The notes below the pieces were generated by a model that saw only the letters and a list, made by a program, of their open reading frames with translations, was not told the origin of the DNA and did not search any database. Positions 2,529-11,063 of a stretch of DNA of 64,000 nucleotides are shown one piece after another. The position numbers and the translations under genes were made by a program. The DNA is taken from sequence record NC_031047.1; one strand, written 5' to 3'. The stretch is from Escherichia phage HY03. Positions within the stretch are counted from its first letter, which is position 1. Each line of letters opens with the position of its first letter.

Positions 2529-3166
2529 TGAATGAACCCCAATTACTAATTGAAACTTGGGGTCAACCTGGCGAAATTATTGATGGCGTACCAATGCTTG
2601 AATCTCATGATGGAAAAGACTTAGGTTTAAAACCGGGTTTATACATCGAAGGAATATTCATGCAAGCGGAAGTCGTCAATAGAAATAAACGTCTTTATCC
2701 AAAACGTATATTAGAAAAAGCGGTAAAAGACTATATTAATGAGCAAGTTTTAACTAAACAAGCTCTCGGAGAATTAAATCATCCTCCACGCGCTAATGTT
2801 GACCCGATGCAAGCCGCTATCATTATAGAAGATATGTGGTGGAAAGGAAATGACGTATACGGACGAGCTCGTGTTATTGAAGGTGACCACGGTCCTGGAG
2901 ATAAATTAGCAGCTAATATTCGTGCCGGATGGATTCCAGGAGTTTCTTCTCGTGGATTAGGTTCATTGACTGACACAAATAAAGGTTATCGTATCGTAAA
3001 CGAAGGATTCAAATTAACTGTAGGTGTTGATGCAGTATGGGGTCCAAGTGCTCCAGATGCATGGGTAACTCCTAAGGAAATTACAGAATCACAGACGGCG
3101 GAAGCCGATACAAGTGCCGATGACGCCTATATGGCTCTCGCAGAGGCCATGAAAAAAGCGTTATAA
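2528..3166 (+). CDS. 21: prohead core scaffold protease gp21
   Basis: 212-aa ORF, same length and position as T4 gp21. Confidence 0.9.
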   Translation: MNEPQLLIETWGQPGEIIDGVPMLESHDGKDLGLKPGLYIEGIFMQAEVVNRNKRLYPKRILEKAVKDYINEQVLTKQALGELNHPPRANVDPMQAAIIIEDMWWKGNDVYGRARVIEGDHGPGDKLAANIRAGWIPGVSSRGLGSLTDTNKGYRIVNEGFKLTVGVDAVWGPSAPDAWVTPKEITESQTAEADTSADDAYMALAEAMKKAL

Positions 3167-3196
3167 ATATTATTATCTAAACAACAGGACTACAAA

Positions 3197-4006
3197 ATGC
3201 TTAAAGAACAACTGATTGCCGAAGCGCAGAAAATTGATGCTTCCGTTGCTCTTGATAGTATTTTCGAATCAGTTAATATTTCTCCGGAAGCAAAAGAAAC
3301 TTTCGGCACTGTATTCGAAGCTACCGTCAAGCAGCACGCCGTTAAATTAGCTGAATCTCATATCGCTAAAATTGCTGAAAAAGCAGAAGAAGAAGTAGAA
3401 AAAAATAAAGAAGAAGCAGAAGAAAAAGCTGAGAAGAAAATCGCTGAGCAAGCTTCTAAATTCCTTGACCATCTTGCAAAAGAATGGCTCACTGAAAATA
3501 AATTAGCAGTAGATAAAGGTATCAAAGCCGAACTGTTTGAATCCATGCTTGGTGGATTGAAAGAGCTCTTCGTTGAACACAACGTTGTTGTTCCAGAAGA
3601 ATCAGTTGATGTTGTAGCTGAAATGGAAGAAGAACTGCAAGAACATAAAGAAGAATCAGCTCGTCTGTTCGAAGAACTCAATAAGCGTGACGCATATATC
3701 AATTATGTGCAGCGTGAAGTGGCATTGAGCGAAAGTACTAAAGATCTGACTGAGTCTCAAAAAGAAAAAGTCTCTGCTCTGGTCGAAGGTATGGATTATT
3801 CAGATGCATTCTCAAGTAAATTGAGTGCAATCGTAGAAATGGTGAAGAAATCTAATAAAGATGAAAGCACTATTACTGAGAGTATAAATACTCCTGATAC
3901 TGAAGCAGCCGGACTGAATTTCGTCACTGAAGCTGTAGAAGATAAATCTGCACAAGGTGCAGAAGATATTGTAAGTGTATATGCGAAAGTCGCATCTCGT
4001 TTCTAA
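3197..4006 (+). CDS. 22: prohead scaffolding core protein gp22
   Basis: 269-aa Glu/Lys-rich coiled-coil protein in T4 gp22 position. Confidence 0.9.
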   Translation: MLKEQLIAEAQKIDASVALDSIFESVNISPEAKETFGTVFEATVKQHAVKLAESHIAKIAEKAEEEVEKNKEEAEEKAEKKIAEQASKFLDHLAKEWLTENKLAVDKGIKAELFESMLGGLKELFVEHNVVVPEESVDVVAEMEEELQEHKEESARLFEELNKRDAYINYVQREVALSESTKDLTESQKEKVSALVEGMDYSDAFSSKLSAIVEMVKKSNKDESTITESINTPDTEAAGLNFVTEAVEDKSAQGAEDIVSVYAKVASRF

Positions 4007-5673: not shown

Positions 5674-6957
5674 ATGGCTAAAATCAACGAACTTTTGCGC
5701 GAATCAACCACAACGAATAGCAACTCAATCGGTCGCCCAAATCTCGTTGCTTTGACTCGCGCTACCACTAAATTAATATATTCTGACATTGTAGCAACGC
5801 AAAGAACTAATCAACCTGTTGCTGCTTTTTACGGTATCAAATACCTTAACCCAGACAATGAATTTACATTTAAAACTGGTGCTACTTATGCTGGCGAAGC
5901 TGGATATGTAGACCGAGAACAAATCACAGAATTAACAGAAGAGTCTAAATTAACTCTCAATAAGGGCGATTTATTCAAATATAATAATATCGTTTATAAA
6001 GTATTAGAAGATACACCATTTGCTGATATTGAAGAAAGCGATTTAGAATTAGCTCTTCAGATTGCAATTGTTCTTTTAAAGGTTCGTCTATTTTCTGACG
6101 CAGCGTCAACAAGCAAATTTGAAAGCTCTGATAGTGAAATTGCGGATGCTAGATTCCAGATTAATAAATGGCAAACCGCAGTTAAATCTCGTAAACTTAA
6201 AACTGGTATCACAGTTGAATTAGCACAAGATTTAGAAGCAAATGGATTCGATGCTCCTAATTTCCTGGAAGATTTGCTTGCAACTGAAATGGCGGATGAA
6301 ATCAATAAAGATATTTTACAGTCTTTGATTACAGTATCAAAACGCTATAAAGTTACAGGAATTACTGATACTGGATTCATTGATTTGAGCTATGCATCTG
6401 CACCTGAAGCTGGTCGTTCATTATACCGAATGGTATGTGAAATGGTTTCACATATCCAAAAAGAATCAACTTATACAGCAACGTTCTGTGTTGCTTCAGC
6501 TCGTGCCGCTGCGATTCTTGCTGCATCAGGTTGGTTAAAACATAAACCAGAAGATGATAAATATCTTTCACAAAATGCCTACGGGTTCTTAGCTAATGGT
6601 TTACCGCTTTATTGCGATACTAACAGCCCATTAGATTATGTAATCGTTGGTGTAGTAGAAAATATCGGCGAAAAAGAAATTGTTGGATCAATTTTCTATG
6701 CTCCGTATACAGAAGGTCTTGACTTAGATGACCCTGAACATGTAGGTGCATTTAAAGTTGTAGTTGACCCAGAAAGTTTGCAGCCATCTATCGGTTTATT
6801 AGTTAGATATGCTTTATCAGCAAATCCTTACACTGTAGCAAAAGATGAAAAAGAAGCAAGAATAATTGATGGTGGAGACATGGATAAAATGGCGGGTCGT
6901 TCAGATTTGTCTGTTTTATTAGGTGTTAAGCTACCAAAAATTATCGTTGATGAATAA
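5674..6957 (+). CDS. 24: capsid vertex protein gp24
   Basis: 427-aa gp23 paralog in conserved position. Confidence 0.95.
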   Translation: MAKINELLRESTTTNSNSIGRPNLVALTRATTKLIYSDIVATQRTNQPVAAFYGIKYLNPDNEFTFKTGATYAGEAGYVDREQITELTEESKLTLNKGDLFKYNNIVYKVLEDTPFADIEESDLELALQIAIVLLKVRLFSDAASTSKFESSDSEIADARFQINKWQTAVKSRKLKTGITVELAQDLEANGFDAPNFLEDLLATEMADEINKDILQSLITVSKRYKVTGITDTGFIDLSYASAPEAGRSLYRMVCEMVSHIQKESTYTATFCVASARAAAILAASGWLKHKPEDDKYLSQNAYGFLANGLPLYCDTNSPLDYVIVGVVENIGEKEIVGSIFYAPYTEGLDLDDPEHVGAFKVVVDPESLQPSIGLLVRYALSANPYTVAKDEKEARIIDGGDMDKMAGRSDLSVLLGVKLPKIIVDE

Positions 6958-6963
6958 AACAAA

Positions 6964-6979
6964 GGGACCTTTCGGTCCC
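6964..6979. terminator. bidirectional stem-loop GGGACC-UUUC-GGUCCC between convergent gene 24 and rnlB
   Basis: Perfect 6-bp GC stem flanked by A-run and T-run. Confidence 0.7.
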
Positions 6980-6986
6980 TTTTTAT

Positions 6987-7990
6987 TTAACTTACCAATT
7001 CAATCCAAGCCGGACGAAGTACATCTTGTACCATTTTAACTAATTCCTTTTTAACCAAAGAAGGATTATCTGCTTGAGTTAGAGTAATACCTTCACGAGA
7101 AGTTTCTTCCAAAATATCTTGAACAGTTAGTCCCATCACCTTTCCAAAATCCTTCGAACCAATTTCACCAATTTTAGAAATAACGTTATTTACTCGGTTC
7201 AGTGTAACGTAGCAAGCTAAAATTCCCACCAATTTGTTATCAGCTTCTGATAGTTCAACTTTAGCTTTAATAGGCTTATCAGACTTTTTCTTTTCACTAA
7301 ATTTGGAATTCTTGCATTTGATGGCTACACGATTTCCATTATGAAGCCAAGAAGGATAACAAGGTTTCAATACATATCCTTCAGCGGTAAATACTTCGCC
7401 TTTGGCTTCAGCTTTCCAAACACATTTGTTAGCGTCAACTAATCCAGCATGGTCTACCGTAAAATTATAATCCTGTACGACAGAATCTAAATCATTTGGC
7501 AATTTAATAAGTTCTTCAAATTTACCACGACCTAAAAGTGGAGCCATTTTAAATTTAAATGTATTACAGAATGATTCCATCATATAATCATCGACATAAG
7601 TCACATCACCACTTTCTGTAGTGACAATAATGTCAAATACATAAAAATCTTTACGCCATAATCGACATTCTTCTGAATGCCAGGTCCAGCGAATTCGCCA
7701 AAGACTTGATAAGATACAACCGCTGAGGTTTCCATAATATCTTGTACTGCTTTAATAGAATCTTCGTAATTCTTTAGAATAATTTCATACCCAAAGAAAT
7801 CTTCAGCAGGAAGAATCGGTCCAGTACGTTTAGCGCAAGTTACTTTATCACGCTCAATAATCAATGAGAAATTTGTGCCGTGAATCTTTTCACGAGCTAC
7901 CCACTCCCCACCAGTCAATCCCAAGCTATAAAGTTTTTCAATAAATTTAGAGTTGTAATGATTTTCAAGACTGCTATACTTTTTAAACAT
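6987..7990 (-). pseudogene. rnlB: RNA ligase 2 (Rnl2) split into two ORFs by a frameshift near 7653-7657
   Basis: N-terminal ORF 7601..7990 carries ligase motif I (REKIHGTN, Lys35); C-terminal ORF 6987..7604 continues in another frame starting at GTG; the switch maps to the GGCGT segment. Confidence 0.6.
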
Positions 7991-7999
7991 AATTAATCC

Positions 8000-8278
8000 T
8001 CAAAATGTAATTTCTAACCAATCACCATCACGCTGATCACTATTGACTTTAAAGCTGAATCCTTCTTTTCTCAGCCAATCACCAATTTCTTCAGTAATCA
8101 ATTTATCACGAGCAATACAATAATAACTAAAATGTGTTTTACCTTGTTCAGCTGCTTTATTAGCAAGTTCCGAAAAATCTTTAATAAAACACTCTAGCTT
8201 AAACTGTTTACTTTTAAGTGCTTTTTCGCGCAATTGATTAGCAAAAGATTCATTTTCATAAAGATCATACTGTTCCAT
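8000..8278 (-). CDS. hypothetical protein (24.2-like position)
   Basis: 92-aa ORF between rnlB and hoc. Confidence 0.6.
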   Translation of the reverse strand: MEQYDLYENESFANQLREKALKSKQFKLECFIKDFSELANKAAEQGKTHFSYYCIARDKLITEEIGDWLRKEGFSFKVNSDQRDGDWLEITF

Positions 8279-8480
8279 TTTTCACCTTTTTATTGATATG
8301 TCTTTTTCTATAGACGACTTTTTCTCGAGTTTCAAATTTATTTTTAGCAGTCATAGCTCGAGCCCATAATACAGCCACTTCTTTTGCCTGTAAGTTTAAT
8401 TCACGAGCAATTTCAATGAATGACTTTCCAGACTCATGAAGAGTAAACACCACAACCTCAGTTCTCATAATCAATCTCAT
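8265..8480 (-). CDS. hypothetical small protein with helix-turn-helix-like segment (24.3-like position)
   Basis: 71-aa ORF; segment SFIEIARELNLQAKEVAVLWARA resembles an HTH. Confidence 0.5.
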   Translation of the reverse strand: MRLIMRTEVVVFTLHESGKSFIEIARELNLQAKEVAVLWARAMTAKNKFETREKVVYRKRHINKKVKNGTV

Positions 8481-8547
8481 GTTATCGAGTTGATGCCATT
8501 ATATACATCATTTTCTGAGTATGTTTTGTGTGCTTTCAAAATGAAGA

Positions 8548-8565
8548 AAGGGGCCGAAGCCCCTT
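8548..8565 (-). terminator. stem-loop downstream of hoc (UUCG loop on the minus strand)
   Basis: AAGGGGC-CGAA-GCCCCTT inverted repeat just 3' of the hoc stop. Confidence 0.6.
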
Positions 8566-8575
8566 ATGATTATGA

Positions 8576-9706
8576 TTATGGATAGGTATAGATGATACCA
8601 GTTTCTAAAGCAGTTTTATGAATGATGTATCCATTACGCGATTCTTGAACATCAACTTCTGGATATTCTTTCATCATCTTCTGAAGAGTGTAACGATGTA
8701 GGTAATATTTACTATCTGGGTCGTCAGTTTTCCAATCTTTACCTTCTTCGGTCATTTTTTGGATTTCATCCATAACCCACCAACCGCACCAGATATAAGC
8801 TGAAGTACGATGTGGAAGAGGATGAACATAAGGTAGTTCACCTTCTGGTTCTGGAGCAACTTTATCAGTTACCTGAACTTGACCTTCTGCTGTAATAGTT
8901 TTGCTATCGTAATCAGTTGCAGTAACGACAGCAGTAACTTCAATAGTTTGACTTCCAACAGATGAGGTATCGACAGTATATACGTTAGTTGACCCTTCTA
9001 CAGGAGAAGAATCTTTCTTCCATGAGTAAGTAATTTGTGCTTCTTCTGGAGCACCCGTAACATTAGCCGTAAATGTAGCCGAAGCATCTTGCTGAACATT
9101 AATAGAAGGAGGAGTCAATGTAACCTGTGGATTCATTGTCTTCTTATTAACTGTCAATGATACTTCATTAGAAGTAACTTCCTTTTCATTGTAATTTTCA
9201 GCAGTTACTTGGGCTACGCATTTAATTCTTTTTACTCCACTTGTAGTTGGAGTATAGCTAAATGTAGAGTTAGTTTCTCCACCAACTTGTGAATCATCTA
9301 CATACCACTGATACGTAGCCGATGCGCCTGGTGGCTGCGAATCTAAGGCAGCAGTAAATTGAACAGCTGTTCCAATTACTCCAGCGTCAGGGCTATTAGG
9401 AGTTACAGCTAAGGTGGTCGTTTGTGTCTTATTTTGAACTGTGATAGTTGTAGTAGCTTCTGCTGTTTCAGCATCAGTATCTGGAACTGTATTTGTTGCA
9501 ACTACTTTAATAGTCTTTTGTCCAGCAGGTCCTTTTAATACATAATCAAAAGTTGCTTCAGCTCCATCTTGTGGAGCATCATCTACAGTCCAAGCATATG
9601 TAATAGTTCCGCCTCCAGTTTCACCACTGGGTGTAGCAGTAAACTGCTTAGTTTCATCAATAACCCCTGTCGGTGTTTTAGGAGTTATATCAACTGTAAA
9701 AGTCAT
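8576..9706 (-). CDS. hoc: Hoc, outer capsid protein with Ig-like domains
   Basis: 376-aa Thr/Val-rich repetitive protein in conserved position. Confidence 0.9.
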   Translation of the reverse strand: MTFTVDITPKTPTGVIDETKQFTATPSGETGGGTITYAWTVDDAPQDGAEATFDYVLKGPAGQKTIKVVATNTVPDTDAETAEATTTITVQNKTQTTTLAVTPNSPDAGVIGTAVQFTAALDSQPPGASATYQWYVDDSQVGGETNSTFSYTPTTSGVKRIKCVAQVTAENYNEKEVTSNEVSLTVNKKTMNPQVTLTPPSINVQQDASATFTANVTGAPEEAQITYSWKKDSSPVEGSTNVYTVDTSSVGSQTIEVTAVVTATDYDSKTITAEGQVQVTDKVAPEPEGELPYVHPLPHRTSAYIWCGWWVMDEIQKMTEEGKDWKTDDPDSKYYLHRYTLQKMMKEYPEVDVQESRNGYIIHKTALETGIIYTYP

Positions 9707-9715
9707 AAGTTATCC

Positions 9716-10396
9716 TTATTTTAATGTTACGAAAGAAGAGTTGCGTGTTTCACGAATTAAAACTGATCCGTCACGGTTAATGTAATAAATTAAGCTAAAT
9801 AAAGTTTGGTGTGCTGACGCATGTTCAAAACTAGTTGGGTGAGATTTCCAATCTGGGGTTTCAGCAATCCATTGATAAATCCACCAAGGAACAGTGCAGA
9901 ATCCTGGATTTTTTCCAATCAGCTGAAGATTCGGACTAAAGTTTTCCGGAAGAGTAAATACAGACGGCTTTTCAGATTCAATAATCTCAGCTACAGCCTG
10001 TTCGAATTTTTCTTCAACAAAAGGAGTATCTTCAATTAAAACAGTGGTATTTTCAGGAATTTTATCCGTTTCTACTACTTCAATTTTAATGTCAGATTTA
10101 ACCGGAGAATCAATCAGAAGTGCTGCCTCTGGATTGACTTCTTCATCGTCATATTTTAATCCGTCTGCGGCATCAGCAGCATCAATTAAGTCTTTAATAG
10201 ATAACCCATCAGTCTCTGGCATAGGTTCACTAGCGAGCTTCTGGAGAGCTTCTTCAATATCATTAACGATATTATCAAAAGATTTATTCTTTTTGACCTT
10301 TATACCAAACTGTTCAGCATATTCAGCTAATTTAGCTTTAGCTTCTTTATTATCATCAAGAGCCTTCAGCTCTGCAATATAATCTTTATCTATCAT
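9716..10396 (-). CDS. inh: Inh, inhibitor of prohead protease
   Basis: 226-aa ORF adjacent to hoc as in T4. Confidence 0.8.
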   Translation of the reverse strand: MIDKDYIAELKALDDNKEAKAKLAEYAEQFGIKVKKNKSFDNIVNDIEEALQKLASEPMPETDGLSIKDLIDAADAADGLKYDDEEVNPEAALLIDSPVKSDIKIEVVETDKIPENTTVLIEDTPFVEEKFEQAVAEIIESEKPSVFTLPENFSPNLQLIGKNPGFCTVPWWIYQWIAETPDWKSHPTSFEHASAHQTLFSLIYYINRDGSVLIRETRNSSFVTLK

Positions 10397-10409
10397 AATA
10401 TTTCCTCAG

Positions 10410-10417
10410 TATAAATA
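10410..10417 (+). promoter_or_regulatory. late promoter TATAAATA upstream of segE-uvsW
   Basis: Exact TATAAATA 29 nt upstream of the segE ATG. Confidence 0.55.
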
Positions 10418-10445
10418 TAGATATATTTATTACTCGGAAAATAGT

Positions 10446-11063
10446 ATGTACCACTTTGTATATGAAACAACAAATCTAATAAATGGTAAAAAGTATATAG
10501 GAAAACACTCTACTGATGACTTGAATGATGGTTACCTTGGTTCCGGTAAGGCAATTCAGCAGGCTATAAAGAAATATGGTGAAAACAATTTCTCTAGAAC
10601 AATACTAAAAGAGTTTAAAACTTCCGAAGAAGCGTACATGTATGAAGAAGAAATTATAACTCCTGAACTAATAAAAAGCAAAAATTATTATAATATGAAA
10701 CCTGGTGGAATTGGTGGAATTGTTATGACTACAGAGGTTATAGCAAAGATGAAAGAATCTTCCGCTAAAAGATTTGAAAACTCACCAGGCACGGTATTAG
10801 GTAAAACTTGTTACACCAATGGAACTAAAAATATTTTTATTAAACCTGGAGAACTTGTTCCAGAAGGATTTGTAAAAGGGATGGTTCATCCTAATAGAAA
10901 GTCCAGAAAAGGATGTAAAGTCAAACCGACTACCACAGGAACTTTTTGGGTCAATAATGGCGCAATAAATAAATTAATACAACCAGACGGTATTATTCCC
11001 GACGGATTTATTAAAGGTCGTCTCATGAAAAGAGATTCTAAAGGCAAATTTAGTAAGGCATAA
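10446..11063 (+). CDS. segE: GIY-YIG homing endonuclease (SegE-like)
   Basis: N-terminal GIY-YIG motif (YETTNLINGKKYIGKHS) with Gly-rich DNA-binding repeats; hoc/inh-uvsW position. Confidence 0.8.
   Translation: MYHFVYETTNLINGKKYIGKHSTDDLNDGYLGSGKAIQQAIKKYGENNFSRTILKEFKTSEEAYMYEEEIITPELIKSKNYYNMKPGGIGGIVMTTEVIAKMKESSAKRFENSPGTVLGKTCYTNGTKNIFIKPGELVPEGFVKGMVHPNRKSRKGCKVKPTTTGTFWVNNGAINKLIQPDGIIPDGFIKGRLMKRDSKGKFSKA

Follow-up and report, generated by a model that had tools for sequence, protein, structure and literature searches.

The window analysed here, a stretch of 64,000 nucleotides (nt) from Escherichia phage HY03 (NC_031047.1), is part of a Tequatrovirus (T4-like) genome, and our subject is a short gene on its minus strand, the counterpart of gene 24.3 of phage T4. 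Gene order on the minus strand is inh, hoc, a GC-rich terminator hairpin, 24.3, 24.2 and rnlB, which is also the order in T4. The first-pass annotation of this DNA had described an open reading frame (ORF) of 71 amino acids (aa) at 8265..8480, lying between rnlB and hoc and containing a segment, SFIEIARELNLQAKEVAVLWARA, that was likened to sigma-70 region 4 or a LuxR-type helix-turn-helix (HTH). Both the ORF and the segment (8423..8355) are indeed present, with hoc upstream and 24.2 and rnlB downstream. The ORF matches the Pfam family DUF2774 (PF11242) over positions 1-63 of the 63 in the profile (E=3.9e-31), scoring 107.5 bits against a gathering cut-off of 29.2 bits, and it matches phrog_1566 (PHROG 1566) at 8e-33. 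Comparison with T4 24.3 had been proposed as a check, and the 67-aa product that we consider most likely (see below) is identical at 67/67 residues to the annotated gp24.3 of the resequenced T4 strain T4T; it differs from the legacy T4 reference, where the gene is 33 bp short and the product has 56 aa. Judged by sequence, by full coverage of the family and by its position between hoc and 24.2/rnlB, the window ORF is a real gene and the orthologue of T4 gene 24.3. As such it is already catalogued, as T4 24.3 and as DUF2774, with no assigned function; a literature search on DUF2774, gp24.3, PF11242, phrog_1566 and accession numbers found no paper on its function in the library covered.

The gene is widespread among phages. 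The 801 bases around 24.3 are 100% identical to phages a51 and S2_01 and to three further records, and share at least 95% identity with several hundred others. Using tblastn, 24.3 can be traced in 1,086 phage records, with identity down to approximately 36%, from phages of Escherichia, Klebsiella, Enterobacter, Salmonella, Serratia, Proteus, Providencia, Erwinia and Aeromonas, and across genera it is kept at 33-60% identity with the same length, start and motif. Among 36 loci from IMG/VR, 34 lie on contigs of 144-178 kb, which are T4-sized, the other two being short fragments. No relative turned up when one genome of each bacterial and archaeal species was scanned, and the family therefore appears to be restricted to phages. 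The PADLOC defence and counter-defence models gave no match to gp24.3 at E<=1, and an Rfam scan of 6800-10500 gave nothing relevant. A plus-strand ORF of 49 aa (8436..8585), which overlaps the start region of 24.3, is without support and was disregarded. Two homologues depart from the usual gene form: on an IMG/VR T4-like contig (L018, 2998..3579) 24.3 is in frame with the next gene, the ORF product being 197 aa, and a second locus (L045, about 3047..3241) lacks the N-terminal half. Both may reflect frameshifts, fusions or errors in sequencing.

The start of the gene most likely lies at the second ATG of the ORF, at 8468, rather than at 8480, so that the reported ORF stands while its reported start and length probably do not. 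The second ATG is favoured because homologue N-termini all fall within a residue or two of it, because the T4 and T4T annotations use the equivalent codon, and because residue 5 of the 71-aa ORF is the first that DUF2774 covers. It is favoured also by a Shine-Dalgarno-like GAGA, 6 nt upstream, whose equivalent is found 5-6 nt upstream of the start in Mineola (GAGG) and S16 (GAGA). Residue numbers below refer to this 67-aa product.

For structure prediction we ran AlphaFold2 (AF2) with an alignment of 24 family members, each representing one 50%-identity cluster from an exhaustive representative search; all 24 also match DUF2774. The model (mean predicted local distance difference test, pLDDT, 84.7) consists of three helices followed by a coil tail (Table 1), with pLDDT above 90 over residues 11-40 and approximately 66 in the tail. 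The segment picked out by the first-pass annotation covers helix 2 and the turn and runs on to the middle of helix 3. Foldseek places RcsB, EvgA, NarL, TraR, GerE and SigW in its top ranks with a probability of approximately 1.0, a root mean square deviation (rmsd) of 1.1-1.4 A and 28-32% identity; E-values are modest (>=0.2), which is to be expected with about 45 residues aligned. The model thus has the three-helix bundle, the sharp turn between helices 2 and 3 and the similarity to solved HTH domains that characterise a tri-helical HTH. We conclude that residues 1-47 are well supported, as a prediction, as a three-helix HTH bundle of the sigma-region-4/LuxR structural type. The likeness to sigma-70 region 4 and LuxR domains that had been claimed from the sequence is hence borne out for the fold by AF2 and Foldseek, but not for family membership, for which the profile scores given below fall short.

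Conservation across the alignment falls into two elements. The first is the N-terminal pattern h-x-h-h-x-h-x-E-x-G-x-x-F-x-[ED]-I-A-x-x-h-G-h-x-x-x-[ED]-h-A. The window protein keeps to the classical HTH positions, with a hydrophobic residue followed by alanine in helix 2 (I20-A21) and hydrophobic residues at position 26 and at V31; the turn residue, which is Gly in most homologues, is Asn here. The C-terminal half of helix 3 carries a conserved stripe of small or hydrophobic residues (A38, A41 and F45) that looks like a packing or dimer interface. The second element is the nearly invariant tail [RK]-E-K-V-V-Y-R-K-R, in which V52, Y53, R54, K55 and R56 are each 92-96% conserved, and it is this basic tail, not the HTH, that forms the most conserved stretch of the family. 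F17, I20-A21 and the tail V-V-Y-R-K-R together make a family signature; conservation in these columns is 88-96%, and the window protein has every one of them. All members of the family are basic (pI 9.6-10.4; about 10.3 for the window protein), and in the window protein the charge is unevenly distributed, the bundle being nearly neutral (+1) and residues 48-67 of the tail having a net charge of +7. In a subset of DUF2774 members (five proteins and two loci, 86-106 aa) the chain is extended at its C-terminus and closes with a conserved ...(Q/A)L.AF...A.EKGW motif, which the T4-type protein lacks.

Matches to HTH sequence profiles are compatible with this fold, though sub-threshold. The best Pfam match outside the DUF families is GerE (PF00196; E=0.002), with 18.2-18.3 bits against a cut-off of 23.5, and GerE is found at E<0.1 in only 5 of the 24 relatives. 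HTH_38, HTH_40, Sigma70_r4_2 (13.1 bits against a cut-off of 25.7), HTH_7 and HTH_35 are weaker still. NCBIfam models of ECF sigma factors match at E=0.009-0.07, at their region 4 and all below threshold; the sigma-70 family model TIGR02937 scores 12.7 against 42.9 and is matched over model positions 124-158 only. A profile search of PDB sequences returned the HTH of the IS21 transposase (E=0.03), RpoE (E=0.05) and VirB (E=0.1), while phmmer run directly against PDB found nothing but a designed repeat protein. Conversely, metagenomic tandem-HTH proteins exceed the DUF2774 threshold over profile positions 5-42, by summation. Five such proteins, the best matches to gp24.3 from outside the family, consist of 4-9 tandem HTH units of approximately 50-57 aa and are strong members of HTH_Tnp_1, HTH_23, HTH_28, HTH_7 or GerE; arrays of this kind are unusual. 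With the HTHs of transposases and resolvases (HTH_Tnp_1, HTH_23, HTH_28, HTH_7, HTH_38), gp24.3 shares a short tri-helical HTH; their tandem-repeat members cross-match the HTH part of DUF2774, and the HTH of IS21 IstA is the best natural sequence match in PDB. However, gp24.3 lacks a catalytic domain, each single match is weak, and no family but DUF2774 has the tail motif.

Expression of the gene has been recorded in T4. There, 24.3 is early by RNA and middle by protein, its product has been detected by mass spectrometry, and 24.2 and rnlB belong to the same expression class (PMC9697503, supplement); CRISPRi-ART knock-down of 24.3, 24.2 or rnlB had no fitness effect in the laboratory host (PMC11879866, supplement). 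In the window, late transcription of hoc is set apart from the 24.3 unit by an intrinsic terminator behind hoc, and Mineola has a terminator annotated at the corresponding site. Directly past the hoc stop, at 8566..8580 on the minus strand, the window reads CATAATCATAATCATAA where T4 has CATAATCATAA, that is, one extra TCATAA unit before the hairpin. A TATAAT lies between the terminator and the start codon as a candidate -10 element, and TATAATGGCA is common to the window and to the consensus sigma-70 promoter of RB49-like PHB13 (TTGACA-N16-TATAAT). Neither by eye nor with a scanner was a convincing -35 element or MotA box found upstream of the window 24.3, and short inverted repeats near its start codon are within chance expectation. 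At the same place, RB69/JS98-like contigs carry a T4-type early promoter (GTTTACA-N17-TAAGAT), and in S16, Mineola and Karam-like contigs a -10 is preceded, 12 nt upstream, by a MotA-box-like TGCTTT(T/A). Since relatives carry recognisable promoter signals at the same place, pre-replicative expression is, on this sequence evidence, a conserved property of 24.3. We take the gene to be the first of a short transcription unit, 24.3, 24.2 and rnlB, that starts just past the hoc terminator, and its protein to be made before DNA replication.

Table 1. Features of the 24.3 locus in the window (residue numbers refer to the 67-aa product)
Feature	Position	Strand	Remarks
24.3 coding sequence	8265..8468	-	67 aa, DUF2774; most likely start, longest ORF extends to 8480 (71 aa)
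Helix 1 (residues 3-12)	8433..8462	-	Predicted; ends in conserved E12-x-G14 turn; AF2 model, column conservation
Helix 2 of HTH (residues 17-24)	8397..8420	-	Predicted; nearly invariant F17, I20, A21; AF2 model, conservation
Helix 3 (residues 28-47)	8328..8387	-	Predicted 'recognition' helix with long amphipathic extension; AF2 model, conservation
Basic tail motif R-E-K-V-V-Y-R-K-R (residues 48-56)	8301..8327	-	Conservation; coil in model
33-bp segment missing only from T4 reference	8330..8362	-	Encodes AMTAKNKFETR; between CTCGAG (XhoI) sites 8362..8357 and 8329..8324
GAGA, Shine-Dalgarno-like element	8475..8478	-	6 nt upstream of ATG at 8468
TATAAT, candidate -10 of a 24.3-24.2-rnlB promoter	8498..8503	-	Approximately 30 nt before start codon
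Intrinsic terminator after hoc	8548..8565	-	GC-rich hairpin and T-run
hoc	8576..9706	-	Upstream of 24.3
24.2	8000..8278	-	92 aa; overlaps end of 24.3
rnlB (RNA ligase 2)	6987..7990	-	Last gene of the 24.3 unit; split by 1-nt deletion near 7654

What might such a protein do? We infer that gp24.3 acts by binding nucleic acid, probably DNA, as an accessory, non-essential early modulator, and we would put the chances of this reading at about even. The HTH would dock on duplex DNA, and the basic tail (REKVVYRKR and further lysines) may supply backbone or minor-groove contacts, or alternatively a strand for dimerisation; bound in this way, gp24.3 could modulate host or phage DNA transactions or transcription early in infection. 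The DNA-binding regulator that the first-pass annotation had suggested is thus plausible as a model. In lambda Cro, an HTH of approximately 65 aa leads into a C-terminal strand and a flexible basic tail, which serve dimerisation and extra DNA contacts, and the design concept of Cro-type repressors, an HTH plus a basic tail, is similar to that of gp24.3. However, a relationship with Cro is without support from sequence or fold searches, and no beta-sheet is predicted in gp24.3. T4 is a virulent phage and is not known to have an operator system for gp24.3.

Several observations weigh against this reading. No DNA-binding family profile in Pfam or NCBIfam reached its curated threshold. When helix 3 is aligned by hand with GerE (KTVRNHISNAM against KEVAVLWARAM in gp24.3) and with sigma-E, the positions through which GerE and sigma-E contact DNA are mostly small or apolar in gp24.3 (A32, V33, L34 and A36), and the only basic residue at such a position, R37, is variable across the family. 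Conservation is concentrated in the tail and the hydrophobic core and not on the HTH surface, a pattern that fits a conserved protein partner as well as DNA, and the tail itself is modelled at low confidence. Because the surface of helix 3 is mostly apolar or variable, DNA binding through this helix cannot be assumed.

These features bear on a different proposal, in which the HTH is used for protein contacts. Here gp24.3, as an adaptor or decoy resembling sigma region 4, would bind RNA polymerase, a sigma-binding factor or some other host protein, and the VVYRKR tail would be its docking peptide. The apolar surface of the 'recognition' helix and the concentration of near-invariant residues in the tail speak for it, as do the top structural matches, which are to sigma region 4 domains, among them several whose structures include anti-sigma factors. 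T4 has other genes (srd, srh) that are named for their resemblance to sigma fragments, and in Klebsiella phage Roth23 a gene labelled as an srd-like decoy of host sigma70 lies directly upstream of rnlB. However, sigma-4, LuxR and transposase HTHs are nearly indistinguishable at such a size, so a sigma-4 top rank is no proof of mimicry; the HTH surface differs from genus to genus, although host RNA polymerase is conserved; and knock-down is without phenotype. We consider an adaptor or decoy unlikely.

The gene neighbourhood raises the question of whether gp24.3 works on RNA instead. Of 40 diverse loci, 38 have rnlB on the same strand as 24.3, at 0.1-1.3 kb downstream. The position after hoc and its terminator and before 24.2/rnlB is conserved in T4-like phages, to judge from the window, T4, Mineola, S16 and, for the rnlB side, PSTCR6. 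Linkage to rnlB is kept where hoc and inh are missing upstream (Providencia phage PSTCR6 and three further loci), and it is kept despite varied intervening genes, which may be 24.2, an unrelated family of approximately 110 aa, both or none; at five loci, with no 24.2 between the genes, the distance to rnlB is no more than approximately 120-150 nt. In the window, 24.2 is probably translationally coupled to 24.3, given the 14-nt overlap of the two genes and the presence of the 24.2 ribosome site, AAGGTG, inside 24.3. This linkage suggests, if weakly, a nucleic-acid-handling module. In its simplest version, gp24.3 would be an RNA-binding or RNA-repair accessory of RNA ligase 2 and gp24.2, its tail binding RNA and the module repairing or processing nicked RNA. 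Against this, T4-like gene order is inherited by descent, which makes synteny weak evidence, and 24.3 persists, tail motif included, in RB49-like PHB13 and L025, where rnlB is not found within 3 kb. Moreover, rnlB is more widespread than 24.3 (1,373 records, including Acinetobacter and Vibrio phages) and occurs there without 24.3 as neighbour, and an HTH fold is atypical of RNA binders. As for gp24.2, structure prediction from database homologues gives an alpha/beta fold, but the identity of its R3H-like match is 7-16%, and it lacks the R-x3-H motif. An RNA accessory is therefore an explanation that we regard as improbable.

A more specific version would make gp24.3 the targeting subunit of a three-part nucleic-acid repair module shared by the T4-like phages of enterobacteria and formed by the HTH and tail of 24.3, an R3H/Smr-like 24.2 and RNA ligase 2, and not a transcription factor. 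We hold this to be a long shot; if it were true, T4 Rnl2 could gain a physiological function, for example in countering host RNA-nicking defence, and the VVYRKR tail would be an interaction or substrate-binding element.

Less probable again, to the point of being very hard to credit, is that gp24.3 is a true LuxR/GerE member or a sigma fragment, acting as a classical dimeric activator or an alternative sigma subunit. GerE is admittedly the best non-DUF Pfam match, identity to GerE and RcsB is 28-32% over 40-43 aligned residues, and with the LuxR/NarL/GerE domains of RcsB, GerE and NarL the protein shares the geometry of helix 1, helix 2, turn and helix 3 (rmsd approximately 1.2-1.4 A over those residues) and a similar E-x-G...EIA...L signature. 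It differs from them in that the fourth, dimerisation, helix is missing, helix 3 running on in the model as one long helix before the coil tail, in that residues contacting DNA become small or apolar, and in that it has a conserved basic tail in addition but neither receiver nor ligand domain. Compared with sigma-70 region 4 (PF04545/PF08281; sigma-28, SigW and sigma-E), gp24.3 is a stand-alone protein of 67 aa lacking regions 2 and 3, and most of the arginines with which sigma-E reads the -35 element are not conserved in our manual alignment. Membership of the LuxR/GerE or sigma-70 families is not supported: the GerE and Sigma70_r4_2 thresholds are missed, the fourth helix of LuxR is absent and sigma region 2 is absent; gp24.3 cannot be a sigma factor. 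Finally, although 24.3 is short, non-essential and without assigned function, the idea that it is a chance ORF or a non-functional remnant is refuted by cross-genus conservation, a curated Pfam family and detection of the protein in T4-infected cells, and its likelihood is negligible.

Relative to the existing catalogue entries, what is new here is the fold assignment, a defined tail motif, the context statistics, the corrected start and a caveat concerning the reference sequence. A small HTH protein among the T4 early genes will not surprise the specialist and opens no long-standing question, but this modest gain in annotation gives experimenters a concrete handle on gp24.3.

The caveat concerns the T4 reference records NC_000866 and AF158101, in which gp24.3 has 56 aa and the gene is 33 bp short relative to the window, the missing bases being located around 4975 in L001 (NC_000866). 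In resequenced T4 genomes (T4T, HM137666; KJ477684-6; MT984581; OZ209023; OZ209057), a query spanning the junction matches in two pieces over 114 bases instead of 81, and alignment confirms the 33 bp in T4T and MT984581; in the latter, 24.3 is not annotated. In the window the segment lies between two XhoI sites (Table 1). The 56-aa form is most likely a legacy assembly artefact, in which a small XhoI fragment was lost, and probably not a natural allele. This matters to anyone cloning or modelling gp24.3 from the reference record.

Among the neighbouring genes, a second small family of approximately 110-145 aa, unrelated to 24.2 and absent from T4, is found directly 3' of the 24.3 homologue in Jiaodavirus, Gelderlandvirus, a Providencia phage and RB49-like phages (L004, 3204..3530; L006, 3234..3590; L007, 3180..3518; L005, 3314..3751). 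Where 24.3 itself is absent, other genes occupy the place before rnlB: in Klebsiella phage Roth23 (L047, 1473..3020) it is the Srd-like 'decoy of host sigma70' gene, which abuts rnlB, and in Acinetobacter phage Berthold two unrelated small ORFs precede it. A small ORF before rnlB in Berthold was considered as a divergent 24.3 and rejected, with an hhalign probability of 0.2%. In the window, a single missing A in TGGCG-TAAAG, next to 7654 and not in a homopolymer, divides rnlB into two ORFs, of 129 and 205 aa. The deletion is defined by comparison with T4 and with phage a51, which otherwise has 1 mismatch over the gene; either rnlB is truly a pseudogene in this isolate, or the assembly is wrong at this point.
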